Assembly: GCA_001464575.1 (NCBI GenBank)
Contig: LNFE01000138.1
Coordinates: 5,116 to 69,115 of the forward strand
Direction of reading: 5' to 3'
Source of the DNA: Acidobacteria bacterium Ga0077553
Lineage (GTDB): Bacteria; Acidobacteriota; Terriglobia; Bryobacterales; Bryobacteraceae
DNA length: 64,000 nt
In this document: piece by piece, positions 1,586 to 18,545 of the stretch
Numbering within the stretch: position 1 is the stretch's first letter
Layout: the number at the start of each line of letters is the position of its first letter
Program-made: the position numbers and the translations under genes
The notes under the pieces: generated by a model
Told to the model about the DNA's origin: nothing
What the model saw: only the letters and a program-made list of their open reading frames with translations
Databases searched by the model: none

Positions 1586-2983
1586 ATGCTGCTTTCGAGC
1601 TCCACCTACTTCATCTTTCTCGCGGCCCTCTTCCTCCTTTACTGGCCGCTATCGCGGTGGCGCGCCGCCAGCTTGGCCATTCTCCTCTTCGCCAACTACT
1701 TCTTTTATGCGAAGTGGGACCTTTTCTACCTGTTCCTCATCCCGCTGGCCTCCACCTGCGATTTTGCCATTGGTCTGGGCCTCGGCCGTTTTCAGAGTCC
1801 CGCCGGCCGCAAACTCCTCGTTTTTCTCAGCATTCTCCTGAACATCGGTCTCCTCACGGCATTCAAATACATGCCGTTCTTGTTCGAAAACTACGCCCGC
1901 CTCGCCGGCGTCCCCGCCCCCACCTGGCATTGGACCTTCCCCCTGGGCATCTCCTTCTATGCCTTTCAGTCCCTCACCTACACCATCGACCTCTACCGCC
2001 GCGACGCGAAACCCACTCGTTCCCTTCTCGCCCACCTCGCGGCGACCTCTTTCTTCCCCACCACCCTCGCCGGGCCCATCACCCGCGTCGCCGACCTCGT
2101 CAAGCAGTTCGAACGTCCCAATAAACAGCTCGACCCCGCCGACGGCAGCCGCGCCTTGTTCCTCATTGGCCTCGGCCTGCTGAAAAAACTCTTGATCGCC
2201 GACTATCTCGCCGAAAATCTCGTCAACCGCGTCTTCGATTTCCCCGGCCTCTACTCCTCCGCCGAGGTTCTCGTCGGCGTCTACGCCTACGCCCTCCAGC
2301 TCTATTACGACTTCTCCGGCTACACCGATGTCGCCATCGGTTCCGCCCTCCTGCTCGGGATTAAGCTGCCCCAGAACTTCAACATGCCCTACGCTGCCGC
2401 CAACATCAACGATTTCTGGCGCCGCTGGCACATCTCTCTCTCCAACTGGCTCCGCGACTATCTCTTCTTCTCGCTCCCCGGCAAGCGCAACGCCGTCATG
2501 CCGTACATCAACCTCATTGTGACGATGACCCTCGGCGGCCTCTGGCACGGAGCCAGTTGGAACTTCGTCATTTGGGGCGTCCTCCACGGCGTAGCCCAAG
2601 CCATCGCCCGCGGATGGCAATCCTGGCGCGGTCCCAAGGCCGCCCCGTGGACGCCCGGTTGGTTCCGTACGTTCTGGACCGTCCAGTTCGTCTGCTTCGC
2701 CTGGATCTTCTTCCGCGCCACCAATCTCGAACAGGCGGGCAAGATCATCGAGCAACTCGGCGAACTCTCCTACGCCACCACGAACGTCTCCGGCCCGCTC
2801 TGGGTCGTTCTCGCGATTGCCGTCGCCGGCCACTATCTGCCGAAAGTCCCCTTCGAAAAGCTCCGCGAAGGCTTCGTGCGCGCTCCGTTTTTCGTCCAAG
2901 CCCTGGTTTTGATGGCGTTGATCGTCGCCATTCAATACATTGCCGCGACAGGCGCCGCCCCGTTTATCTACACTAATTTCTAA
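1586..2983 (+). CDS. MBOAT-family membrane O-acyltransferase (AlgI/DltB-like)
   Basis: 465-aa polytopic protein with the FWRRWHISLSNWLRDYLF motif (His codon near 2429) typical of AlgI/DltB MBOATs. Confidence 0.9.
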   Translation: MLLSSSTYFIFLAALFLLYWPLSRWRAASLAILLFANYFFYAKWDLFYLFLIPLASTCDFAIGLGLGRFQSPAGRKLLVFLSILLNIGLLTAFKYMPFLFENYARLAGVPAPTWHWTFPLGISFYAFQSLTYTIDLYRRDAKPTRSLLAHLAATSFFPTTLAGPITRVADLVKQFERPNKQLDPADGSRALFLIGLGLLKKLLIADYLAENLVNRVFDFPGLYSSAEVLVGVYAYALQLYYDFSGYTDVAIGSALLLGIKLPQNFNMPYAAANINDFWRRWHISLSNWLRDYLFFSLPGKRNAVMPYINLIVTMTLGGLWHGASWNFVIWGVLHGVAQAIARGWQSWRGPKAAPWTPGWFRTFWTVQFVCFAWIFFRATNLEQAGKIIEQLGELSYATTNVSGPLWVVLAIAVAGHYLPKVPFEKLREGFVRAPFFVQALVLMALIVAIQYIAATGAAPFIYTNF

Positions 2984-2986
2984 GCA

Positions 2987-4372
2987 GTGCCCCTTCCCCG
3001 CAAAGTCACGTTCACGCTTCTCTCGCTCGCGCTGATGGTCACGGCGCCCGACCTGATCCCCGCGCTCAAGGATTACCACGTCTTTGACTGGGCCTCCGTC
3101 GCGAAAGTCGCCGAGTTCGAGCCGCGCGTGCGCAGTGCGAACCCGGTCGAGGAAGAACAACAGCGCCTCAAGCCCGTCATCTCGGTGGAAAAGACCCCAG
3201 TCCGCCCCCTGGTCGATCCCAAAGGCGCTCTCGAACCTCTGTACGCCGCCCTCTTTGCGACCGAACGGAAGGAGGCGGGCGCCATCACCCGCATTCTCCA
3301 TTACGGTGACTCGCCCACGACGGCCGATCTAATTACGGCCGATGTCCGCTCCCTGTTTCAGAAAGATTTTGGTGACGCCGGCCACGGTTTCGCCCTCGTG
3401 GCCAAGCCGTGGGCCTGGTATGCCCACCGAGGGCTTGAAATCAAAGGCTCCGGCTGGAAGATTGAGCCCGCAAACACCGCCGAACTCAAGGACGGGCTGT
3501 ATGGCCTCGGCGCAGTCTCCTTCCGCGGCGGCGCGGGAGCCCAGTCCCGGATCGTCTTGAAGGATCCCACCCACTCGGAAGTCGAGGTTTCTTTCCTTTC
3601 TCAACCCGGTGGTGGCTCTTTCGGGGTCTTTGCCGACGAAAACCCGCTCGAAATCGTCGAGACGGAGTCCCCGGTGGTCACCCCCTCGTTCAAGAAGCTG
3701 AAGCTCCCTGGCGGCGCTCGCGAGGTCCGCATCGCCAACGTCACGGGCAAAGTCCGGCTGTACGGTCTTCGCTTCGGCAAGGATGCCGCGGGCGTCGAAT
3801 ACAACTCCCTCGGGGTCAATGGAGCGTATATCTCGATCCTCGCCCGCATGGTGGATGAACAGCATTGGGCCGAACAGCTGCAGCATCACCGGCCGAATCT
3901 CGTCATCATCAATTACGGCACCAACGAAAGCGTCTACGCCAAATTCGTCGACACCGCCTTTGAACGGGAACTCCTCCGTACCATTGGCCGCGTCAAAAAG
4001 GCGGTTCCCCAGGCGGCCATTCTGATCATGTCGCCCATGGATCGCGGTCAGAAAATGGAGGACGGCTCCATCGGCACCGTGCCCGCGCTCTCTCGTCTCG
4101 TCGCGATCGAGCAACGCGTCGCCGCCGAGCAGGGCTGCGCCTTCTTCAATACGTTTGAAGCCATGGGCGGCCCGGGCACCATGGGCCGCTGGTACCAAAC
4201 GGAGCCCCGCCTCGTCGGCGCGGACTTCATCCACCCGATGCCCAACGGCGCTCGCATCGTCGGCAACCTGCTGTACAAGTCTCTCCAGGAAGGCTACCGC
4301 CGGCACAAGCTTCGCATCGCGCAGGAGAAGTTTGCGACAATTAAGGGGTCCAATCCCACCCCGGCGAACTGA
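2987..4372 (+). CDS. membrane-anchored SGNH/GDSL-type hydrolase or acyltransferase (DltD/AlgJ-like), copy 1
   Basis: GTG start 4 nt after the MBOAT stop, with an N-terminal hydrophobic anchor. SGNH blocks: ILHYGDSPT (Ser 3311-3313), IINYGTNES, and GADFIHP near the C-terminus. Confidence 0.8.
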   Translation: MPLPRKVTFTLLSLALMVTAPDLIPALKDYHVFDWASVAKVAEFEPRVRSANPVEEEQQRLKPVISVEKTPVRPLVDPKGALEPLYAALFATERKEAGAITRILHYGDSPTTADLITADVRSLFQKDFGDAGHGFALVAKPWAWYAHRGLEIKGSGWKIEPANTAELKDGLYGLGAVSFRGGAGAQSRIVLKDPTHSEVEVSFLSQPGGGSFGVFADENPLEIVETESPVVTPSFKKLKLPGGAREVRIANVTGKVRLYGLRFGKDAAGVEYNSLGVNGAYISILARMVDEQHWAEQLQHHRPNLVIINYGTNESVYAKFVDTAFERELLRTIGRVKKAVPQAAILIMSPMDRGQKMEDGSIGTVPALSRLVAIEQRVAAEQGCAFFNTFEAMGGPGTMGRWYQTEPRLVGADFIHPMPNGARIVGNLLYKSLQEGYRRHKLRIAQEKFATIKGSNPTPAN

Positions 4373-4376
4373 ACCA

Positions 4377-5801
4377 TTGAATCGATTTCTTGTTGCCGCG
4401 ACCATCATCTGTGCCTTGTTGGGAAGCGTGTCTTTCGGAGCCCCGGCCAGAAAGAAGCCGGTCGTCAAGAAAAAGACCACCTCAATCAAACGGCCCGTCA
4501 AGACGGCCGCGAAAAGGACCACCCGCCGTCGCCCCGCGGTGGCTCGCGCCGCTCCGGTGGCCCCCCAGGTCCGGCAAGCCGCCAGCACCGCTGTCTCGGA
4601 GTGGCTGAACCAGCCGGGCACGATTGAAAATCCGGCGGCGCTCGTTCCCTTTCTCGAACAGCTATATCGTCTTGAAAGCGGCACCAGCAAGGACGTTTTG
4701 CGCGTGCTCCACTACGGAGACTCACATACCGCCTCCGATGATTGGTCCGGCACCACCCGCTATCTGATGCAGGCCCGTTTCGGCGACGGCGGCCCCGGCT
4801 TCACCCACGCCGGCCGCCCTTACCTGGGCTACCGCCGGCTTGACGTCAAATCCTGGTCCACCAACGCGTGGTACACCGATGGGCTGGTTGGCCGCGAGGG
4901 CGATGGCATGTACGGCGTGTCCGGCATTTCCATGTCCACCAAGCGTGCCGGCGAATCGGTCACCCTCCAGGCGGATTGCGCCTCCGCCGAACTCCATTTC
5001 CTGCGGCAGCCCGGGGGCGGGCTGGTCGAAATCTCCGATAACGGCATCGTCGTCGAAACCATCTCGACGGCCGGGGAGCCCGGCGCGGGCGTCTATCCGC
5101 TCCGCCTCCAGCCTGGCCTGCACCAGTTGGCCGCCCGGACCCGCGGCGGCGGCCAGGTTCGTCTCTTTGGCTGGGTCACCGAAAACGGCCGCGGCCTTAC
5201 CTACGACATGCTCGGCATGAACGGCGCCCAAGCCAACATCGGCCTGAAATGGGAAGAGACCGTCCTCGCCGACTACTACCGTCGCCGCCCCCCCGGCCTC
5301 ATCATCCTCGCCTACGGCACCAACGAAGCCCGCAATAAGGATTGGACCCACGAGTCGTATCGCGACATGTTCATCCAACTGCTCTCCCGCTTCCGCCGTC
5401 TCGCCCCCACCGCCTCCATCCTCGTCATCGGCCCGCCCGATCACTTCTACCGCTACTCCACTGGCATGGCCTCCCACCAAAAGATCGACCTGATTCTTGA
5501 AGCCCAGCGCGAGGCCGCCCATGCCAGTGGCGTCGCCTTCTGGGATCTGCGGGAGCGCATGGGTGGCAAAGGCGCCATGGGCCGCTGGGTCGCCGCCGGC
5601 ATGGCGCAGGGAGATTATGTGCATTTTACGGGCGAAGGCTACCGCCTTTTAGGCGCGGCATTGTATAAGGAATTGATGGGTCAATACGCAACTTATGTCA
5701 GGGTGCGGAATGAAGCCCTCCCAGCCCAAACCGCGCGAGATTCCACAGTTCTCCCCACGGCAGCGAAGATCATCAATGGACAAACGAACGAAAATCAATG
5801 A
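4377..5801 (+). CDS. membrane-anchored SGNH/GDSL-type hydrolase or acyltransferase (DltD/AlgJ-like), copy 2
   Basis: In-frame TTG at 4377, 5 nt after the copy-1 stop; the track's ATG at 4155 would overlap copy 1 by 218 nt. It has a hydrophobic anchor followed by a Lys/Arg-rich linker. SGNH blocks: VLHYGDSHT (Ser 4722-4724), ILAYGTNEA, GDYVHFT. Confidence 0.75.
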   Translation: MNRFLVAATIICALLGSVSFGAPARKKPVVKKKTTSIKRPVKTAAKRTTRRRPAVARAAPVAPQVRQAASTAVSEWLNQPGTIENPAALVPFLEQLYRLESGTSKDVLRVLHYGDSHTASDDWSGTTRYLMQARFGDGGPGFTHAGRPYLGYRRLDVKSWSTNAWYTDGLVGREGDGMYGVSGISMSTKRAGESVTLQADCASAELHFLRQPGGGLVEISDNGIVVETISTAGEPGAGVYPLRLQPGLHQLAARTRGGGQVRLFGWVTENGRGLTYDMLGMNGAQANIGLKWEETVLADYYRRRPPGLIILAYGTNEARNKDWTHESYRDMFIQLLSRFRRLAPTASILVIGPPDHFYRYSTGMASHQKIDLILEAQREAAHASGVAFWDLRERMGGKGAMGRWVAAGMAQGDYVHFTGEGYRLLGAALYKELMGQYATYVRVRNEALPAQTARDSTVLPTAAKIINGQTNENQ

Positions 5802-6012
5802 GATCCTGAACGGGATCGCTGGCAAGACGATCGCTCCGGCCGACGACGAATCGCTCTTCGATTCCGGCCTCCTCGACTCGTTCGCTTTGGCCGACCTCGT
5901 CTCGGCCCTCGAAAAGGCGTTTGAACTCAAGATCCCGGATGCCGATCTCAACCCGCGGAAGTTCGATTCGATCGAACGGATTGAGTCCTACCTCGAAGCC
6001 CACGGGAAATAA
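5776..6012 (+). CDS. DltC-like acyl/peptidyl carrier protein (78 aa)
   Basis: ATG at 5776 inside track ORF 5695..6012, overlapping the preceding gene by 26 nt. It is acidic and ACP-sized. The LFDSGLLDSFALADLVSALE serine (5878-5880) matches the phosphopantetheine site of DltC (EEGLLDSFGTVELL). Confidence 0.75.
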   Translation: MDKRTKINEILNGIAGKTIAPADDESLFDSGLLDSFALADLVSALEKAFELKIPDADLNPRKFDSIERIESYLEAHGK

Positions 6013-6017
6013 CGTCT

Positions 6018-6944
6018 TTGCCTTTCCTCCGCGAATTTGCCGCCTACCTGCCCGAGCGGGTCGTCTCCAACGCAGAGATTGGCTCGCAAGTCGGCTGTGA
6101 TGCCGAATGGATCAAGAATGTGAGCGGCATCGAGCAGCGCCGCTTCGCCGGTGATGACGAATCCGTCGCCGACTTGGCCCTGCGCGCCGCCCAGGCTTGT
6201 CTCGATAAAGCCAAGCTCTCCGCTTCCGCCCTCGGCATGATCATGATCGCCAGCGGCAGCACGGAGCGCCATTTCCCCGGCCCCGCCGCCACCGTGGCCC
6301 ATCGGCTGGGTCTCGATGCCACCCCCGCTCTGGACGTACCCATGGCCAGCGCCGGTACGCTCTACGCCATGGCGCTCGCCTCCCGCCTCTGCGACAGCAT
6401 CGGCGAAATCCTCGTCATCGGCGCCGAAAAGATGTCCAGCGTCGTCCTGCGGCCTCCCATGGAACGCGGCGTCGCCATTCTGTTTGGCGACGGCGCCGGC
6501 GCCTGCCTCGTCAGTCCTACCGAAGGCAAGGCGCGCGTCCTCGGCAGCAGCCTCCACACCGACGGGGCCTTCGCCGAAGACCTGAAACTCGGCTTTGACC
6601 GGCCTCTCGAAATGAACGGCCGCTCCGTCATCCTGCAAGCCTCCCGCAAAGTGCCCCGCGCCATCAGCGAACTCCTCGACCGCCACGGCCGCAAAGCCTC
6701 CGACGTCGGTACCTTTCTGATGCATCAGGCTAACCAGAACCTGATCGATCGCGTTGCCCAAGCCCTCGAAGTTCCCGCGGACCGCTTCTATTCGAACATC
6801 GCCCGTTACGGCAACACCAGCTCCGCCAGCATGTTGATCGCCGCCGCCGAGTGGGCGGAGTCCGGTTGGCCCGCCGGCGAGTCCGTTTGCTTCACTGCCT
6901 TCGGCGCCGGCTTCCATTGGGGCGCGCTGCTGGCCGAAGCATAG
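6018..6944 (+). CDS. KAS III (FabH)-fold enzyme with Ser replacing the active-site Cys; probable acyltransferase
   Basis: TTG start 5 nt after the carrier gene. It aligns with E. coli FabH along its full length. His (LMHQANQNL) and Asn (RYGNTSSAS) are conserved, but AAACAGF is replaced by PMASAGT (Ser111, AGC 6348-6350). Confidence 0.85.
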   Translation: MPFLREFAAYLPERVVSNAEIGSQVGCDAEWIKNVSGIEQRRFAGDDESVADLALRAAQACLDKAKLSASALGMIMIASGSTERHFPGPAATVAHRLGLDATPALDVPMASAGTLYAMALASRLCDSIGEILVIGAEKMSSVVLRPPMERGVAILFGDGAGACLVSPTEGKARVLGSSLHTDGAFAEDLKLGFDRPLEMNGRSVILQASRKVPRAISELLDRHGRKASDVGTFLMHQANQNLIDRVAQALEVPADRFYSNIARYGNTSSASMLIAAAEWAESGWPAGESVCFTAFGAGFHWGALLAEA

Positions 6945-7020: not shown

Positions 7021-8595
7021 ATGCTCTTCCTGCTCGCCTTGGCCGAAGTTCTGTACTGGGACACTGATGTCCAGCTCTCCGGCCAGTTGACCCATAGCGT
7101 CCGTATCCAACTTACCTCCGCCGCTGACCTCCACTCCCACGGCGTGGTTACGCTCCCCTATTCCCCCCGCCGCGGTCAAACCATCATCGACCTCCGTGCC
7201 GCCACCGTTCTCCCCAACGGCCAGCGCATCCCCGTCCCCGCCGCCGCCATCTTCGATACTGTCACCTGGCAGCGCGGCGACCGCCAGGACCGCACCCTCT
7301 CCTGGGCCTTCTCTGCTCTCGAGCCCGGCGCCATCGTCGAATACGAATACACCGAGTGCTTCGCTTACGGCCTACCCCTGCCGCTACGCATCCCGCTCCA
7401 GCGCGAACTCCCCGTCCGCTCCCGCGAAGTCACCGTCCCGCCCGGCCTCGTCGCCCACGATCTCCGCTGCACCAACTGCCGTACCAACCTCCCGGCCTAT
7501 CGCGAAGAGCCCGACGCCCCCGGCCCCGCCGTCGTCGAACTCACCGCGCCCGCCGAAACCTCCTGGAACACCCTCGCCCGCGAACTCGCCGCCCAGTTCG
7601 AAGCCGAACTCGGCCCCGTGCCCGCGCCGGATGCCGGAGACCTCGAGACCCTCGCCGAACTCTGCCGCACCCGCATTCAGAACGTCCTCTACCGCACCGA
7701 CAACCTCACTGTCCGCGGCACCCCTCAACCCAATCGCTACCCCGCCGAAACCTGGCAACGCGGCTACGGCACCCCCCACGAAATCAACCTTCTCTTCGCC
7801 GCCCTTGCCCGCGCCGCCGGCTACGAAGTCTCCTACGCCCGCGTCGTCAACCGCCCCGACCTGGCCGACCCCTCCCAACTGGCAAGCGAACTCATCGCCG
7901 TCCACCAGCCCCACGGCTACGCCTTCTTCAACCCAGGCGTGCCTTACCTCGGCCCCGGCCTCCTCGATTTCGACGAAGAGGGCCGCACCGCTCTGGTCGC
8001 CACCGCCAATGGCGCCGAGTTCATCACGCTGCCCCGCTCCTCCGCCTCGCAGAACCGCACAGAACGCCGAGCCCTCCTCCACGCCCAGCCGGACGGCAGC
8101 GTCCGTGGCACCGTCACTCTCACCTTCACCGGCCACGCCGCTGCCCTCCGCAAGCGCCGCGCCGAACGCCTATCCCCGGCCGAACGCCTCGCCGCCCTTC
8201 GCCAGGAGTTCCCCGGCACCGAACTCGACAACATCGTCATCGAGAACTTGGCCCTTCCCGCCGCTCCGGTACGCATAACGTTTCAGGTAGCCGTTCCGAA
8301 CTATGCTGACCGTTCTCCTCGCCGCCTGTTTTTCCCCGGCCGGTTCTTCGCCCGCTTCGCGTCCCCCCGCTTCCCAGACCCGGAACGAACCCAGCCCGTC
8401 GAGTTCCCTTTTGCCTTCTCCGTCCACGACGCGGTCACCTTCGTCGCCCCCTCCGGCGTGCAACGCCAGTTCACCCGCGAACTCCGTCAGGATCAGCTCC
8501 GCTTCTCCCCCGCCGAATACCCCGAGCTGCGCCGAAAATGGGCCACTTTCGAAGACGCCGAGCGAGAAGTTTTTCCCATGGAGCGACTTCACTAG
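7021..8595 (+). CDS. DUF3857/transglutaminase-like protein, predicted catalytically inactive paralog
   Basis: 524 aa and a paralog of the next gene. The transglutaminase-core-like segment RGYGTPHEINLLFAALARAAGYEV has Pro (7774-7776) where the neighbour has Cys. Confidence 0.65.
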   Translation: MLFLLALAEVLYWDTDVQLSGQLTHSVRIQLTSAADLHSHGVVTLPYSPRRGQTIIDLRAATVLPNGQRIPVPAAAIFDTVTWQRGDRQDRTLSWAFSALEPGAIVEYEYTECFAYGLPLPLRIPLQRELPVRSREVTVPPGLVAHDLRCTNCRTNLPAYREEPDAPGPAVVELTAPAETSWNTLARELAAQFEAELGPVPAPDAGDLETLAELCRTRIQNVLYRTDNLTVRGTPQPNRYPAETWQRGYGTPHEINLLFAALARAAGYEVSYARVVNRPDLADPSQLASELIAVHQPHGYAFFNPGVPYLGPGLLDFDEEGRTALVATANGAEFITLPRSSASQNRTERRALLHAQPDGSVRGTVTLTFTGHAAALRKRRAERLSPAERLAALRQEFPGTELDNIVIENLALPAAPVRITFQVAVPNYADRSPRRLFFPGRFFARFASPRFPDPERTQPVEFPFAFSVHDAVTFVAPSGVQRQFTRELRQDQLRFSPAEYPELRRKWATFEDAEREVFPMERLH

Positions 8596-10266
8596 GTGCT
8601 CGCTTTCTTACTCCTCACGAGTTGGTTTCAGGAAGTGGCGTCCGCTCCCTCGCCCGCCGGTGCCGCCGCCCACACTTTGCTGCGGGAGGAGTCGGTAGTG
8701 GTAGAGCCCAACGGCCGGCAGACCACCATCACGCGCGGAGTCATCCGCATTCTTACCGCCGCCGGCGCCCGCTACGCCCGCGCCGGCGTTGCCTACGATA
8801 ACGTCGGCGGCAAGCTCGTCGAGTTCCGCGCCTGGGTGCAGCCGCCCGGCGGCGAACCGCAAGAGATCGACCCGGACGAGTTCACCGATCGGCACCTATC
8901 CCAAGGCGAAGTGCACTCCCCCCTTCGCCAGCGGCAGGTCGAGGCGGCCGTCCAACCAGGCGGCCTGTTCTTCTACCAATCCACCGTCCTCTCCCAAGCC
9001 GCCTTCCCGCAAGCCGAGTTCGAGTTCCAAGAAAACGAGCTGCCGGTGCGCCTAAGTCGCTTCCGCCTCTCCGCCCCCGCCACTTGGGGCCTGCAACCTG
9101 TTCTCTTCGCCGCCTCCCCCGCCCGCCAAGGCAACACCTGGGAGCTGCGGGACCTGCCTGGCCATCCTGCCGCGCCCCCCCGCCTCGCCGTCACCCTCCT
9201 GCCCGATCAACCCGCCCTGCCCCGCTTCGCCACCTGGCCCGATGTCGCCGCTTGGCTGGGCCATCTTGCGGAACCAGCGGCCCAACCCACCGCCCGCGTG
9301 GCGCAGCAAGCGGAACGTCTCGTCGCCGGCCTCAACTCCGTCAACGATCGCATTCAGGCCTTGGGAGCCTTCGTCCAAAGCCTGCGCTACGTGGCCATCA
9401 ACCACAATCTGGGGCAGGGAGGCGGCTTTACCCCGGCTGCTGCCGATGCCGTCCTCTCTCGCGGCTACGGGGACTGCAAGGACAAAGCCACCCTCCTTCG
9501 CGCCTTCCTCCGAGCCATAAACATCAACTCCTGGCTGGTCGCCATCAATGCGACCGATCGTACTCGCGTCCGTTCCGAATGGCCCTCCCCCCGGGTTTTC
9601 AATCACGCCATCGTCGCCATAGAGACCGAGTCCGGCCTCCTCTATTTCGACCCGTCCAATCCCACGAGCACCCTCGGCCAACTGCCCTACGCCCAACAGG
9701 GCGTTCCAGCGTTGGTTTTGCGCCAGGGAGCCACTCTCGCCCCGACTCCGGAACAACCCGGCGAGATCGAACGTAAGATCATGCTCCGCCTCGAACAGGA
9801 CGGCCGCGTTACGGGACGGCTGCTCGAAACCTCCCGCGGGTCTGCGGCGGCCGAAAGCCGCGCCCTGCTGGCCGCCGGCGCGTGTGACGGCGTTCTCGCC
9901 GCTCGCCTGCGCGGAACAGTTACTAATTGTCAGGTCCAGGATGAGTTCCCCCGAGATGGAATACATTTGTATGCTCAGTTTGGCCAGGAGGACCAGTTGG
10001 CCGCCGCCGGTGAGTTATGGCTTTGGAAGCCCCTCCTGCCCTGGGCGGAGGGTAACGGCGCTGTAACCATCCACGAGACCGTCGAAATCGAGCTCCATCC
10101 CCGGTGGACGGTCGAGGAACTGCCGGAACCCGTGCGTTCCAGCAGCTTTTCCGCCGCATGGTTCCTCCGGGATGGTAAGTTGTTGATTGACCGGTTCCTC
10201 CGTTCGCTGCCCGGTAGCCCCATCCCCGTCGAGCGCCTTCCCGTCGTATTACGCGGATTACACTGA
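8596..10266 (+). CDS. DUF3857 + transglutaminase-like cysteine protease-fold protein
   Basis: GTG immediately after the preceding stop, with a signal-like N-terminus. Core motif SRGYGDCKDKATLLRAFLRA (Cys 9475-9477). Confidence 0.75.
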   Translation: MLAFLLLTSWFQEVASAPSPAGAAAHTLLREESVVVEPNGRQTTITRGVIRILTAAGARYARAGVAYDNVGGKLVEFRAWVQPPGGEPQEIDPDEFTDRHLSQGEVHSPLRQRQVEAAVQPGGLFFYQSTVLSQAAFPQAEFEFQENELPVRLSRFRLSAPATWGLQPVLFAASPARQGNTWELRDLPGHPAAPPRLAVTLLPDQPALPRFATWPDVAAWLGHLAEPAAQPTARVAQQAERLVAGLNSVNDRIQALGAFVQSLRYVAINHNLGQGGGFTPAAADAVLSRGYGDCKDKATLLRAFLRAININSWLVAINATDRTRVRSEWPSPRVFNHAIVAIETESGLLYFDPSNPTSTLGQLPYAQQGVPALVLRQGATLAPTPEQPGEIERKIMLRLEQDGRVTGRLLETSRGSAAAESRALLAAGACDGVLAARLRGTVTNCQVQDEFPRDGIHLYAQFGQEDQLAAAGELWLWKPLLPWAEGNGAVTIHETVEIELHPRWTVEELPEPVRSSSFSAAWFLRDGKLLIDRFLRSLPGSPIPVERLPVVLRGLH

Positions 10267-11271: not shown

Positions 11272-12648
11272 ATGTTTCGTCTGGATGCGGATCGCCCCGT
11301 TGAATTTTGCGACGGCACCCGTCGCCGTGATTTCCTGCACGCCGGAGCGCTCTCGACGCTCGGCCTCGGCCTCGCCCAATTCGCCGGCTTGAAAGCCCAC
11401 GGCGCCGTTGACCCCAAGAAAGACGTCAACTGCATCTTATTGATGCTCGTCGGCGGCCCCTCCCAGCTCGACACCTGGGACATGAAGCCCAACGCGCCCA
11501 TCGAAATCCGCGGCCCCTACAAGTCCATCAAGACGAACGTCCCCGGCATCGAAATCTCGGAAAACTTCCCCCGCATGGCCAAGCACGCGGACAAGTTCTC
11601 CATCGTCCGGTCGATGTACCACACCGCCGCCGCCGTCCACGACACCGGCCATCAGATGATGCAAACCGGACGCCTCTTCCAGGGCGGCGTCGAGCACCCC
11701 CACTACGGCTGCGTCCTCGGTAAACTGCGCGGCTCCAAAGGCGACGTCCCGCCCAACATCCTGCTGCCCCGGCCCATCGGCGCCACCGGCGGCAACATGC
11801 CCCACGGCCACGCCGCCGGCTATCTCGGCAAAGCCTACGATCCCTTCATCCTCAACGCCGATCCGTCAGACCCCAACTTCCGCGTCCCCGACATGCTCCC
11901 GCCCGATTATCTGTCGTCCCACCGCGTGGACCGGCGGAAGAACTGGCGCGAAGCCATCGACAAGTCGGTCAGTAAGTTCGAAACCTCGCAAGACGCCCGC
12001 CTCCTTGATTCGAGCTTCCAGCAGGCCTACACCCTGATGTCCTCCGCCAAGGCCCGCGCGGCGTTCGAACTCCATCGCGAACCGGAAGCCGTCCGCGAAA
12101 AATACGGCCTCAATCGCTTCGGCCAAAGCTGCCTCCTCGCCCGTCGCCTCGTCGAAGCCGGCGTCCGCTTCGTCACCATCAACATGTTCGAAACGGTGTT
12201 CGACGAAATCACCTGGGACATCCACGGCTCGAAGCCCTTCTCCCCCATTTCCTGCTACAAAGACCTCGTCGGCCCCATGTTCGACATGGCCTATAGCTCG
12301 CTCCTCGAAGATCTCTCGCAACGCGGCCTCCTGTCGAACACCATGGTCATCGGCACCGGCGAATTCGGCCGCACCCCCAAGGTCAACCCCGCCGGCGGCC
12401 GCGACCATTGGCCGCAATGCTGGTCCATGCTCGCTGGAGGCGGCCCGCTCAAGGGCGGCACCATCGTCGGCTCCTCGGACGAAATCGGCGCCATGCCCAA
12501 GGACCGTCCCACCACCCCGGCCGAAGTCGCCGCCACCATCTATAAAGGCCTCGGCATCGACCTCGAAACCGAACTCCCTGGTGCGCAGGGACGCCCTATC
12601 CCTGTCGTCGATCGCGGCACCGAACCCATCAAAGAACTCTTCGTGTAA
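11272..12648 (+). CDS. DUF1501 domain protein (sulfatase-fold, twin-arginine signal)
   Basis: RRDFLHAGALSTLGLGLA Tat-like signal. LVGGPSQLDTWDMKP and GEFGRTPKVNPAGGRDHWP motifs are typical of DUF1501. Confidence 0.85.
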   Translation: MFRLDADRPVEFCDGTRRRDFLHAGALSTLGLGLAQFAGLKAHGAVDPKKDVNCILLMLVGGPSQLDTWDMKPNAPIEIRGPYKSIKTNVPGIEISENFPRMAKHADKFSIVRSMYHTAAAVHDTGHQMMQTGRLFQGGVEHPHYGCVLGKLRGSKGDVPPNILLPRPIGATGGNMPHGHAAGYLGKAYDPFILNADPSDPNFRVPDMLPPDYLSSHRVDRRKNWREAIDKSVSKFETSQDARLLDSSFQQAYTLMSSAKARAAFELHREPEAVREKYGLNRFGQSCLLARRLVEAGVRFVTINMFETVFDEITWDIHGSKPFSPISCYKDLVGPMFDMAYSSLLEDLSQRGLLSNTMVIGTGEFGRTPKVNPAGGRDHWPQCWSMLAGGGPLKGGTIVGSSDEIGAMPKDRPTTPAEVAATIYKGLGIDLETELPGAQGRPIPVVDRGTEPIKELFV

Positions 12649-16288: not shown

Positions 16289-16370
16289 AGAGCACCCATG
16301 CGCTACCTCACCCTGCTCCTCGCCGTTTCCCTGTACGCCCAGTCCCCCCGCACCACGCCCCCCACGCGGC

Positions 16371-18545
16371 ATGACCGCCGAACTCGTCATCGAAGGCTTC
16401 AACCTCGCCAAGACCTCGGCTATCTACTTCTCGGACCGCCGCGTCACCGGCAAGATACTCCGCGTTAAGGAACTCCCCGACCTTCCCGATATCCGCATCG
16501 GCGCCAACGGCACCCAGTCCTCCATTGACGTCGGCCCCCTCCCGCCACGCAACCAGCTCACCGTCGAAGTCGACATCGCCCCCGAAGCCGAAATCGGCGA
16601 CGTCTCCTTCCGGCTCCAAACCCCCCTCGGCACCTCGCCCGAAGGCACTATCCTCATTGAACCCTACGTCGGCGAAGCGCCGGACCAGGAACCCAACGAT
16701 ACCCTCGCCGGCGCTTTCGAAACCCATCTCCCCGCCGTCCTCACCGGCGCCATCTCCAAGCCCGGCGACCTCGACCATTTTAAGTTCACCGCCCGCGCCG
16801 GCCAAACCATCGTCATCGAAAACTCTTCGGACAAGGTCGGCTCCAGCCTCCAGCCCGTCATCGCCATCCTCGACGCCAATGGCGCCGTCCTCCGTACCTA
16901 CGGCGAGGATGGAGAGACATTAACGTTTACCCATAAATTCGAAAAAGCCGGCGTCCACTATCTCCGCATCTCCGACTACGAACGCTCCGGCCGCGCCTCT
17001 CACCAGTACCGGATCAAGGTCGGCGAGTTTGGGTTCGTTTCGTATTTTTACCCGCTCGGCCTCCAGCGTGACTCTGCCGCCACCATCCAACTCACTGGTC
17101 CCAACGTCCCCGCCACCGTCCAAGTGAAGGGCACGCCCATTGTCGAAGATCCGTTCTCGACCCTCCTCCGCCCCGAAGGCGCGTACAATCGCGTCAAGCT
17201 CGCGCTCGGCCGCGACCCCGAACTCCTCGTCGCCCAGCCCTCCCCCAAACTCACCCTCCCCGTCACCTTGAATGGCAAGCTAGATAAAGCCACTTCCGTC
17301 CACAAGTTTTCGTTCAGCGCCAAAAAGGGCCAGCCCCTCGTATTCGAAGTCATGGCCCGCCGCCTCGGCTCCCCGCTCGATACCACCATCGAAATCCTCA
17401 CCGCCGCCGGCAAGCCCATCGAAGTCGCCGCCGTCCGCCCCGTCGTTGAAACCTTCACCACCCTCCGCGACCACGACTCCATGCAACCCGGCGTCCGCAT
17501 CACCCACTGGAACAACATCAACGCCGGCGACTACATGATGCTCGGTCGCGAAATCGTCCGCGTCGCCGAACTCCCCCGCGGCCCCGACGAAGACATCCGC
17601 TACGAACAGCTCAACGGCCAGCGCGTCACTTTCTACAACACCGCCGCCGAAGCCCACGCCATCGACAAGGCCATCTACAAAGTCCAGATCCATCCCCCCG
17701 GCGCTCAGTTCGCGCCCAACGGCCTTCCCGTCACCCGCATCTACGCCCAGAACGACGACGGCGGCCCCGGCTTCAGCAAGGACTCCTACCTCACCTTCAC
17801 CGCCCCCGCCGACGGCGACTATCAGCTCGTGGTCCGCGACGTCACCGGTGCCACCGGCCCCTACCGCCTCAACATCCGCGAGCCGCGCCCGGACTTCCGC
17901 CTCTCCGTCAACCCGCGCAACCCCAACGTCCCCCGCGGCGGCACCATCCCGCTCACCGTCACCGCCACGCGCCTCGACGGCTACTCGGGGCCCATCGACC
18001 TCTCCTTCTCCGCCCTCCCCAAGGGCTTCACGGTCACCAAGGGCCGCATCGAGCCCAACCAGAACACCGGCGTCCTCCTCCTCACCGCCGCGCCCGATAT
18101 CCAGGTCGCTGAAGCCGTCCGCTTCGACGTCACCGGCGCTGCCCTCGGTGTAACCCGCCAAGCCAGCCCCGAGGACCACCTGAAGCTCATCGCCGTCGGC
18201 GGCAACCCCGACGTAATCATGACCAGCGCCACCCGCCGCGTCGAACTCGCCCCCGGCGAAACGGCCGCCATCCAGGTGAAGATCAGCCGCCACAACGGCT
18301 TCGCCGGCCGCGTCCCCGTCGATGTCGTCAACCTGCCGCCCCGCGTCAAGCTGCCCGATTTTGGCCTGAACGGCGTCCTGCTCAACGAAGACGAAACGGA
18401 GCGGACCTTCTACATCGAGGCTACCCCCTCCGCCGAACCCGGCGACTATACCATCGCGGTCGCTGGCCGCGTCGAAACCCGCAGCCCGCAGCAGAACCTC
18501 TCCGCCGCGCCGGAAACCATCGCCGTCCGCATCAAGGCGAAGTAA
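16371..18545 (+). CDS. secreted-type protein with pre-peptidase C-terminal (PPC) and Ig-like domains; N-terminus probably disrupted by frameshift
   Basis: ATG at 16371 in track ORF 16059..18545; the part upstream overlaps the WD40 gene. It has an EPNDTLAGAF...GDLDHFKFTARAGQTIVIE PPC-type motif. A signal peptide (MRYLTLLLAVSLYAQS, 16298-) lies in another frame just upstream. Confidence 0.75.
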   Translation: MTAELVIEGFNLAKTSAIYFSDRRVTGKILRVKELPDLPDIRIGANGTQSSIDVGPLPPRNQLTVEVDIAPEAEIGDVSFRLQTPLGTSPEGTILIEPYVGEAPDQEPNDTLAGAFETHLPAVLTGAISKPGDLDHFKFTARAGQTIVIENSSDKVGSSLQPVIAILDANGAVLRTYGEDGETLTFTHKFEKAGVHYLRISDYERSGRASHQYRIKVGEFGFVSYFYPLGLQRDSAATIQLTGPNVPATVQVKGTPIVEDPFSTLLRPEGAYNRVKLALGRDPELLVAQPSPKLTLPVTLNGKLDKATSVHKFSFSAKKGQPLVFEVMARRLGSPLDTTIEILTAAGKPIEVAAVRPVVETFTTLRDHDSMQPGVRITHWNNINAGDYMMLGREIVRVAELPRGPDEDIRYEQLNGQRVTFYNTAAEAHAIDKAIYKVQIHPPGAQFAPNGLPVTRIYAQNDDGGPGFSKDSYLTFTAPADGDYQLVVRDVTGATGPYRLNIREPRPDFRLSVNPRNPNVPRGGTIPLTVTATRLDGYSGPIDLSFSALPKGFTVTKGRIEPNQNTGVLLLTAAPDIQVAEAVRFDVTGAALGVTRQASPEDHLKLIAVGGNPDVIMTSATRRVELAPGETAAIQVKISRHNGFAGRVPVDVVNLPPRVKLPDFGLNGVLLNEDETERTFYIEATPSAEPGDYTIAVAGRVETRSPQQNLSAAPETIAVRIKAK

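Follow-up and report, generated by a model that had tools for sequence, protein, structure and literature searches.

An acidobacterial five-gene locus combines a core resembling peptidoglycan O-acetylation clusters with a DltC-like carrier protein and a KAS III-fold enzyme

How is a membrane-bound O-acyltransferase (MBOAT) supplied with acyl groups when its gene lies beside that of a carrier protein but no adenylating enzyme is encoded nearby to load this carrier? The question is raised by five close-packed open reading frames on the plus strand, at positions 1586-6944 of a 64-kb stretch of contig LNFE01000138.1 (the window; all coordinates are window positions), which encode, in this order, an MBOAT, two SGNH proteins (SGNH1 and SGNH2), a small carrier protein and an enzyme with the fold of a ketoacyl-ACP synthase III (KAS III). 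An earlier note on this DNA had described the set as a Dlt-like locus, after the system for D-alanylation of teichoic acids, and had proposed that acyl groups pass from acyl-CoA to the carrier, from there to the MBOAT and on to periplasmic SGNH proteins that decorate an unknown envelope target. Its gene inventory stands; when the spacing was read again in the DNA, the five genes were separated by gaps of 3-5 nucleotides (nt) or overlapped by 26 nt, as it had said. The Dlt-like label does not stand, since the core is of the type found in clusters for O-acetylation of peptidoglycan (OAP; PatA/Ape), with an MBOAT that ends in an FxYxxF motif and SGNH proteins of the Ape1 family. We consider it probable that the locus serves extracytoplasmic glycan O-acylation of the MBOAT-SGNH kind, with an OAP-homologous core and, as an addition to it, a module dedicated to supplying the donor.

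The first gene (1586-2983, plus strand, 465 amino acids, 3 nt before SGNH1) encodes a polytopic protein that Pfam assigns to the MBOAT family (1.8e-27), with the catalytic His282 (nt 2429-2431) in WRRWHISLSNW, the motif from which the family had originally been recognized. The protein terminates in PFIYTNF, which is the FxYxxF acyl-shuttle motif (nt 2963-2980, with Tyr462 at nt 2969-2971) and had been overlooked when the likeness to DltB was put forward. The tyrosine of this motif is auto-acetylated in PatA and hands the acetyl group to the SGNH partner, whereas DltB lacks the motif, which is supplied by the microprotein DltX (PMC12148441, JBC 2025). All 80 related MBOATs carry both the catalytic histidine motif and FxYxxF at the extreme C-terminus. 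The closest solved relatives are structures of DltB (6bug_C and 8jem_A, ~1e-28), with coverage of residues 120-345 only, and the score against the NCBIfam DltB equivalog (172.7 bits) is far under its cutoff of 375, which, together with the terminal motif, speaks against the proposed DltB likeness. The two hallmarks of an OAP-type MBOAT, an invariant histidine and a C-terminal FxYxxF with an acyl-accepting tyrosine, were found in the window protein, which by its sequence is a PatA/AlgI-type MBOAT with a fused shuttle motif, unlike DltB.

SGNH1 (2987-4372, plus strand, 461 amino acids, GTG start, 4 nt before SGNH2) and SGNH2 (4377-5801, plus strand, 474 amino acids, TTG start) are paralogs with 30% identity, and both match Lipase_GDSL_2 in Pfam (9.5e-13 and 6.1e-13, respectively). 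The HYGDS, YGTNE and DxxH blocks that had been read from the sequence are present in both proteins, with GDS, GTNE and DxxH conserved among relatives; the predicted catalytic residues are Ser109 (nt 3311-3313), Asn313 and Asp413/His416 in SGNH1, and Ser116 (nt 4722-4724), Asn316 and Asp413/His416 in SGNH2. Their description as DltD-like has to be given up: neither protein matches a DltD model in Pfam or NCBIfam, and the sole strong matches in sequence and structure are to Ape1. Neisseria meningitidis Ape1 (4k3u) is matched by SGNH1 at 1.8e-18 (residues 95-440), by SGNH2 at 9.9e-28 and by the SGNH family profile at 2.9e-34, and SGNH2 also matches Campylobacter jejuni Ape1 at ~1e-13. These alignments are end-to-end and include the beta domain that lies as an insert between SGNH blocks I and II. 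SGNH1 was modelled with AlphaFold2 (mean predicted local distance difference test score of 89.7), and the model gave 4k3u as its top Foldseek match (E 6e-28, template-modelling (TM) score 0.85), together with C. jejuni Ape1 (8gkd/8gld); target-normalised TM scores against both Ape1 structures were 0.82-0.86 at E ~1e-25 to 1e-28, and the next match followed at 7e-10. The Ape1 type is characterized by a Ser-His-Asp triad and by an SGNH domain that is interrupted after block I by a CBM35 domain; these features are found in both paralogs, and both are membrane-anchored Ape1-family proteins with the fold of O-acetyl-peptidoglycan esterases and an inserted CBM35-like domain. An OAP cluster variant in which pat is accompanied by ape1b and ape1c has already been catalogued (Weadge et al. 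2005, PMC1199599), and because an MBOAT with two Ape1-type proteins reproduces this layout, the core is, on sequence grounds, OAP-like and not Dlt-like.

The new element is the pair of carrier and KAS III genes that has been added to this known type of core. The carrier gene (5776-6012, plus strand, overlapping SGNH2 by 26 nt) encodes 78 amino acids with a pI of 4.6 and matches Pfam PP-binding (2e-8). Ser35 (nt 5878-5880), in the GLLDSF motif, aligns with the phosphopantetheine serine of DltC in 8jf2_F and 6bug_A, in agreement with the earlier assignment of an acidic carrier with a DltC-type site. The same two chains, from entries of DltB-DltC complexes, are its best matches in the PDB (~1e-6), and the DltC model is its best NCBIfam match, at 37.7 bits and under the cutoff of 68; this model likewise matches 14 of 14 members of the carrier family at sub-cutoff scores. 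Peptidyl carrier proteins scored equal to DltC when we searched with a profile of the family, the alignment of which has an invariant D-S-F within the consensus GVLDSFaLvDF...VPDaDvnPxNF. By these similarities, the carrier is nearest to DltC and to type II peptidyl carriers, and not to the acyl carrier proteins (ACPs) of fatty acid synthesis.

A candidate DltA-type ligase for this carrier was not seen. None of the six frames of the 64-kb window contains the AMP-binding PROSITE signature with a downstream GxTE, only one of 169 related loci has the signature, in a position that is not conserved, and no AMP-binding Pfam domain was found among the annotated neighbours of the window and the related loci. 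The missing adenylating enzyme was thus reported correctly, and homologous loci do not consistently bring a ligase of the DltA type with them.

What sits beside the carrier instead is a gene for a KAS III (6018-6944, plus strand, 308 amino acids, TTG start, 5 nt after the carrier gene), with the Pfam domains ACP_syn_III and ACP_syn_III_C and with NCBIfam scores of 254.4 bits for PRK09352 (cutoff 249) and 225.8 bits for TIGR00747 fabH (cutoff 292.1). Alignments to FabH structures and to E. coli FabH, the reference sequence of which was checked against 1hn9, agree in placing DVPMASAG on DISAACAG of FabH, with Ser111 (nt 6348-6350) at the position of the catalytic Cys112, as had been noticed before. 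His236 (in HQAN) and Asn266 (in GNTS) are retained, so that the Cys-His-Asn triad is incomplete only by the exchange of Cys for Ser. Phe87 and the CoA-site residues Trp32 and Arg151 of FabH are likewise retained, and the residues at the positions of E. coli Arg36 and Arg249, the latter of which we take to be an ACP-docking residue, are lost. Phe87 predicts a small C2-C3 pocket in the window enzyme; Cys-form members have Val or Ile at this position.

Related enzymes form a recognizable clade. Blastocatellia KAS III proteins keep the cysteine (DLRVGCAG) and are 35% identical to the window enzyme, compared with 32% for E. coli FabH, and share with the Bryobacterales proteins a set of derived characters: Arg249 replaced by Asn (giving the motif HQANxN), loss of Arg36, Gly306 replaced by Ala, and the motif MNGRSVILQA. 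Metagenomic HQANxN relatives keep the cysteine, too. The histidine and asparagine corresponding to FabH His244 and Asn274 are invariant throughout the HQANxN clade, the latter in GNTS, and His-Asp does not occur. Serine is the nucleophile in 116 of the 120 closest homologs and in 55 of 57 KAS genes from Bryobacterales genome loci, the remaining two being unreadable. Because it is fixed across an order, the serine is, judged from these alignments, a selected state in Bryobacterales and not decay; because Blastocatellia and metagenomic relatives keep Cys, it is specific to this lineage and does not define the clade. The description of the enzyme as a Ser-variant KAS III is therefore right for the window, although the serine turns out to be lineage-specific within a clade whose other members carry Cys. 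That the gene encodes the housekeeping FabH was considered and rejected, since the enzyme has Ser as its nucleophile and lacks Arg249, and since its gene is strictly linked to those of carrier and MBOAT, as described below.

We then asked how consistently the five genes occur together, using tblastn of the five proteins for the conclusions on synteny. In a scan that took each species by a single genome, at least 533 species had a relative of SGNH1, and the best 80 loci, which were analysed, all belong to Bryobacterales, including the isolate Paludibaculum fermentans, a cultured bacterium with the full cassette. Synteny in relatives at 95% identity matches that of the window, and in relatives at 55-63% identity the five genes recur between completely different neighbours. 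The genes for MBOAT, SGNH1 and SGNH2 were always together in these genome loci, and carrier and KAS genes followed directly downstream in 58 of 73 classifiable Bryobacterales loci; they were absent from the other 15, in which the downstream sequence was sufficient, and 10 further loci were too short. When the MBOATs were placed in a neighbour-joining tree, the pair-less loci (~14-15 species) formed one clade nested among carrier-containing loci, the simplest reading of which is that carrier and KAS were lost once. The exception, L045, belongs to a group with insertions between SGNH1 and SGNH2, and its missing pair is probably a truncation artefact. The arrangement also reaches beyond the order: among six contigs inspected after a profile search, those of Blastocatellia and Pyrinomonadaceae have the order SGNH-MBOAT-SGNH-carrier-KAS. 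The SGNH1 paralog lies directly after the MBOAT in both Bryobacterales and Blastocatellia, and the ortholog of SGNH2 is the gene upstream of the MBOAT in Blastocatellia; its position is variable, and genes are sometimes inserted before it. Since the Blastocatellia genes are orthologous to SGNH1 and SGNH2 despite the reordering, the SGNH duplication and the five-gene set, as far as these sequences tell, predate the split of the two acidobacterial classes and survived rearrangement. The co-conservation of the five genes, which the earlier note had named as a check of its proposal, is thus seen in 58 of 73 loci and in a second acidobacterial class.

A second scan, of metagenomes, was seeded with a Cys-type KAS and used patterns that are generic FabH motifs. 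It returned 80 KAS III loci, of which 70 encode ordinary FabH with HQANxR; a carrier or MBOAT gene was found in 0 of these 70, which provided an unplanned negative control. Among the 10 loci with HQANxN, the carrier family was encoded immediately upstream in 8 of 8 evaluable cases and an FxYxxF MBOAT in 6 of 6. Four of them have more divergent MBOATs (40-42% identity), and two of these four were examined in detail. The first (L095, 2596-15590) has carrier, HQANxN KAS and MBOAT inside a cluster of NeuB, DegT, WbqC and UDP-GlcNAc-2-epimerase genes, that is, nonulosonic-acid synthesis, and its MBOAT is followed by a short, weakly SGNH-like protein that is not Ape1-like. The second (L099, 221-10879) has genes upstream for a methyltransferase, a UDP-glucose/GDP-mannose dehydrogenase, a DUF218 protein and a beta-helix protein, and its MBOAT is followed by a 324-amino acid protein with GNS...DxxH motifs, again not Ape1-like. 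The conserved unit is, on this comparison of sequences, a triad of carrier, HQANxN KAS III and FxYxxF MBOAT with varying periplasmic partners, which is the expectation if the pair supplies the donor of the MBOAT. The donor module also occurs in other glycan clusters, from which it follows that acceptors differ between lineages. The earlier view that the KAS III is no bystander gains from the fact that the HQANxN clade comes with carrier and MBOAT in every evaluable metagenome locus and that none of the 70 ordinary FabH loci has either.

Several variants of the cassette were observed. The pair-less loci were L018, L029, L047, L049, L051, L053, L055, L061, L065, L067, L071-L073, L075, L078 and L082, and ~11 loci of this clade have a conserved gene for a bacterial SH3-domain protein of 430-470 amino acids after SGNH2. 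Bryobacter-like loci contain 1.5-4 kb between SGNH1 and SGNH2, with SGNH2, carrier and KAS together on the far side; of the inserts (L036:11335-15344, L044:4045-7363, L081:11143-12810 and L079:1876-6143), three have a von Willebrand factor A gene. Loci derived from metagenome-assembled genomes can be mis-assembled, and L063 is fragmented; reduced variants or such assembly errors would explain L011, in which KAS is present and the carrier was not detected in the 84-nt gap between SGNH2 and KAS, and L020, which reads MBOAT-SGNH1-carrier-KAS without SGNH2. Two Bryobacterales-type cassettes are labelled 'uncultured Arcobacter sp.' (L039) and 'uncultured Bordetella sp.' (L064); these labels look wrong, and L039 has the upstream arg-gene synteny of Bryobacterales loci. 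The argB, argC, GNAT, MBL-fold and zinc-ribbon membrane genes that recur upstream were considered as system members and dismissed as lineage synteny. The two Ape1-like paralogs are fused in some lineages (P0263, P0265, P0267, P0391-P0393 and P0396, ~880-930 amino acids); the fused protein P0391 is directly followed by an MBOAT, with neither carrier nor KAS in the neighbourhood, and P0396 has an additional match to DUF459 (PF04311). Lytic transglycosylase (SLT) genes were seen ~8 kb from two distant cassettes (L087:1-67 and 16289-17773, and the last gene of the P0391 locus), which may be a weak circumstantial link to peptidoglycan or a coincidence.

Taken together, the observed gene content, motifs, fold homology and co-conservation suggest the following relay, whose functional steps are read from sequence, fold and gene neighbourhood. 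The cytoplasmic KAS III would charge the phosphopantetheine arm of the DltC-like carrier with a short acyl group as a thioester, either by acyl-CoA:carrier transacylation with acyl-O-Ser111 (or, in other lineages, acyl-S-Cys) as intermediate or by decarboxylation or condensation of a malonyl-carrier to an acetyl- or acetoacetyl-carrier. The carrier would then bind the MBOAT from its cytoplasmic side, in the way that DltC docks on DltB, and the thioester would enter the tunnel, where His282 would catalyse acyl transfer to Tyr462 of FIYTNF at the outer face, as in PatA. Membrane-anchored SGNH1 would take the acyl group onto Ser109 and esterify an envelope glycan with it at a hydroxyl, most likely at O-6 of MurNAc in peptidoglycan, and SGNH2, the paralog nearer to Ape1, would remove the ester or serve as a second transferase. 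We are rather confident, from sequence conservation, that the carrier feeds the MBOAT. For the division of labour we see an even balance: SGNH1 would be the partner and transferase of the MBOAT because its place beside the MBOAT gene is invariant in two classes, and because SGNH2, then the esterase, is nearer to Ape1 and more mobile; SGNH2 may alternatively be a second transferase. The passage from carrier to MBOAT to periplasmic SGNH protein is hence retained from the earlier note as the best reading, by virtue of the co-conservation and the linkage of the KAS clade. Its starting step, from acyl-CoA to carrier by the KAS III, is allowed but has become one of three chemistries conceivable at a Ser/Cys-His-Asn site, and its target is no longer wholly unknown, as the nearest system is the peptidoglycan OAP cluster.

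Several points weigh against this relay, and we consider them together with the alternatives that they favour. The pair-less Bryobacterales clade has no carrier or KAS gene within 8-10 kb, and distant relatives also lack the pair, namely a locus with a fused double-SGNH protein next to an MBOAT and a divergent three-gene locus; a Polyangiaceae relative has the SGNH pair without carrier and KAS and with no MBOAT nearby. Given this nested clade and the distant relatives, the MBOAT and SGNH core can work, or at least persist, without the pair, presumably on acyl-CoA like PatA, if that analogy holds. The locus might thus be a canonical OAP cluster with an MBOAT that uses acetyl-CoA, as PatA does with no need for a carrier (PMC12148441), and with a carrier and KAS that serve another pathway, such as that of a lipid or a small polyketide; the near-ordinary FabH score of the KAS (PRK09352, 254 bits) would fit. 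We nevertheless regard this as improbable. The adjacency has outlasted the rearrangement of gene order between two acidobacterial classes and recurs in glycan clusters that are unrelated and whose MBOATs and SGNH partners differ; the HQANxN KAS was never seen without the carrier, nor without an MBOAT where flanks were available, compared with 0 of 70 for ordinary FabH; the genes overlap or lie 3-5 nt apart; and among carriers, only DltC, to which this one is similar, is known to dock on an MBOAT. True aminoacylation of the Dlt type, in which a DltA-like ligase encoded elsewhere loads the carrier and the KAS III is a bystander, would account for DltC as the best family match of the carrier and for DltB as the best NCBIfam and PDB match of the MBOAT. 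Both scores are far under the family cutoffs, however, and with no AMP-binding gene in the window and none conserved in 169 related loci, a fused FxYxxF in place of DltX, Ape1-like SGNH proteins and a strictly co-conserved KAS, we consider this explanation highly improbable. Within the relay, the chemistry of the KAS III is a separate matter. Acyl-CoA:carrier transacylation through an acyl-Ser or acyl-Cys enzyme is the option that we favour slightly, at a little under even chances; the interchange of Cys and Ser and the retained CoA-site residues Trp32 and Arg151 are consistent with it, and the KAS III-fold protein ChlB3, which loads a carrier protein, provides a precedent (PMC9573744). Characterized KAS III-like acyltransferases such as CerJ and ChlB3 have a Cys-His-Asp triad (PMC9573744), whereas the window enzyme keeps the His-Asn of FabH. 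A C112S variant of E. coli FabH, in work by Davies et al. from 2000, reportedly loses transacylation and keeps malonyl-ACP decarboxylation, which makes a role as a simple acyl-CoA loader insecure. Somewhat less probably, the same relay would run with a KAS III that acts on a malonyl-carrier loaded by FabD: in Cys forms its condensation with acetyl-CoA would yield acetoacetyl-carrier, and the Ser form of Bryobacterales would condense like DpsC or only decarboxylate, so that a C4 beta-keto or beta-hydroxy ester, or a malonyl-derived acetyl group, would end up on the glycan. This would make sense of the decarboxylation and condensation set (His244, Asn274) that is invariant in a clade of mostly Cys enzymes, of the His-Asp found instead in pure acyltransferases and, for decarboxylation, of the single report on C112S, and a dedicated carrier is more sensible for an acyl group that has no common CoA ester. 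The cassette contains neither a ketoreductase nor a malonyl transferase, though, Trp32 and, in the window enzyme, Arg151 of the CoA site are kept, O-acetoacetyl or 3-hydroxybutyryl esters of peptidoglycan are not known, and the Cys/Ser interchange suits an acyl-enzyme transacylase, as transacylases of the FabD type use Ser. That the pair is a general donor module for FxYxxF MBOATs that makes a non-acetyl thioester (acetoacetyl, 3-hydroxybutyryl or propionyl) for a new kind of ester that Acidobacteria and other soil bacteria would place on peptidoglycan and further envelope glycans, with the change from Cys to Ser in Bryobacterales marking a change of the acyl group, is a speculative extension that we consider unlikely.

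The acceptor and the SGNH activities have to be weighed in the same way. As it is the esterase Ape1 that both SGNH proteins resemble, a transferase role for either is, going by sequence, assumed: the structures of the PatB transferase (7TJB and 8TLB; PMC12148441) were not matched by the SGNH profile in the PDB at E<=1, where only Ape1 and generic esterases were found. Nor do peptidoglycan genes flank the locus within the window. An acceptor such as an exopolysaccharide, a sugar of lipopolysaccharide or capsule or another glycan, with both Ape1-like proteins acting as transferases in the manner of AlgJ and AlgX, would be compatible with the relatives of the module in nonulosonic-acid and polyuronate-like clusters, with the complete catalytic blocks of both paralogs and with an organism that has Ape homologs but minimal O-acetylation of its peptidoglycan (Weadge et al. 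2005, PMC1199599). We consider such an acceptor doubtful, though more plausible than a pair unconnected with the MBOAT. Peptidoglycan remains the likeliest single acceptor, with sequence evidence that puts it at about an even chance, because strong homologs of the two SGNH proteins, insert included, are found solely among peptidoglycan O-acetylesterases, because the cassette of Bryobacterales travels alone, among housekeeping or variable genes and outside polysaccharide operons, and because the SH3-domain protein follows the cassette in the pair-less clade. Bacterial SH3 domains often bind the cell wall. A pat gene with two Ape1-type genes is, moreover, a described OAP layout (PMC1199599).

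The surroundings of the locus in the window are as follows. No promoter-like site was found in a scan for promoters and terminators, and terminator-like sites were at background level. Upstream lie the 3' part of an L-threonine 3-dehydrogenase gene (80-721), a gene for 105 amino acids with no family match (782-1099) and a gene for an Fe(2+)-trafficking and oxidative-damage protection protein (1150-1446). Two adjacent paralogous DUF3857 genes follow directly downstream (7021-8595 and 8596-10266), the second with a match to a transglutaminase core; they were rejected as members of the system, being kept only in the closest relatives. Further downstream are a DUF1501 gene (11272-12648) and then, by synteny with L001, genes for PSCyt2/PSD1 and PSCyt1-WD40 proteins, a set associated with genomes of the Planctomycetes type. 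The GC skew is steadily negative across the first 14 kb of the window, where the annotated genes are on the plus strand. The whole 64-kb window contains no tRNA or tmRNA gene and no Rfam family at the gathering threshold.

MBOAT/SGNH pathways other than Dlt are said to lack a carrier protein (PMC12148441), and a review on cellulose mentions an acyl carrier protein as donor as speculation only. We found no description of an architecture of MBOAT, carrier and KAS III in the full-text literature, the coverage of which was incomplete, so that this is no proof; as far as it goes, the search agrees with the earlier impression that the architecture is uncharacterized. The donor strategies recognized so far are a ligase-loaded carrier with a separate DltX, as in Dlt, and acyl-CoA with a motif fused to the MBOAT, as in the others. 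The present locus is a hybrid of the two, with a PatA-type MBOAT, Ape1-type partners and a DltC-like carrier, and with a thiolase-fold enzyme in place of the adenylating enzyme. The cassette is not a one-off either, as most of the at least 533 species-level matches in an abundant soil order have it and it is also found in a second acidobacterial class and in glycan clusters from metagenomes. If the proposed relay is true, it would be a third way of feeding acyl groups across the membrane and would predict a possibly non-acetyl modification of peptidoglycan for a major soil phylum with barely studied envelope chemistry; it would also provide a natural Cys/Ser pair for separating transacylation from condensation in KAS III enzymes. 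With at least one cultured species carrying the cassette, P. fermentans, it can be tested directly.

Among the known systems, the Dlt pathway (DltA/B/C/D/X) is the only characterized MBOAT-SGNH system with a phosphopantetheinylated carrier as donor, and the locus shares with it a DltC-like carrier and an MBOAT whose nearest solved relative is DltB. It differs in that it has no adenylating enzyme, in that the MBOAT itself, and not a separate DltX, carries the shuttle motif, in the Ape1-type proteins that stand in the place of DltD and in its host, a diderm acidobacterium. The putative loader is a thiolase-fold KAS III, and the cargo should therefore be a carboxylic acyl group and not an amino acid. 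The OAP system (PatA/PatB/Ape1) shares with the locus the MBOAT histidine and C-terminal FxYxxF, a membrane-anchored SGNH protein encoded immediately downstream, a second SGNH protein with the Ape1 fold and inserted beta domain, and the combination of one pat with two Ape1-type genes. PatA uses acetyl-CoA directly (PMC12148441), whereas the locus has a co-conserved carrier and KAS III, which argues for a donor other than acetyl-CoA; it also has no CBM-less SGNH protein of the PatB type, both of its SGNH proteins being Ape1-like, and its acyl group may be non-acetyl. With FabH, the KAS III has in common the fold, a dimer-type sequence, the His-Asn pair and Phe87, with DpsC the Ser nucleophile and with ChlB3 a KAS III fold able to load a carrier. 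It departs from FabH in the exchange of Cys112 for Ser in Bryobacterales, the lost Arg36 and Arg249 positions and the MNGRSVILQA and HQANxN motifs, and from all three in its partner, a DltC-like carrier and not AcpP or the ACP of a polyketide synthase. The acetylation systems of alginate (AlgI/J/F/X) and cellulose (WssF-I) likewise combine a fused-motif MBOAT with two periplasmic SGNH-like proteins, whereas the present cassette lies outside a polysaccharide synthase operon, includes a carrier and KAS III and has no Pfam matches of the AlgJ/AlgX type or to AlgF. By these analogies, the locus would be OAP-like outside the membrane and Dlt-like inside, and fits neither system fully.

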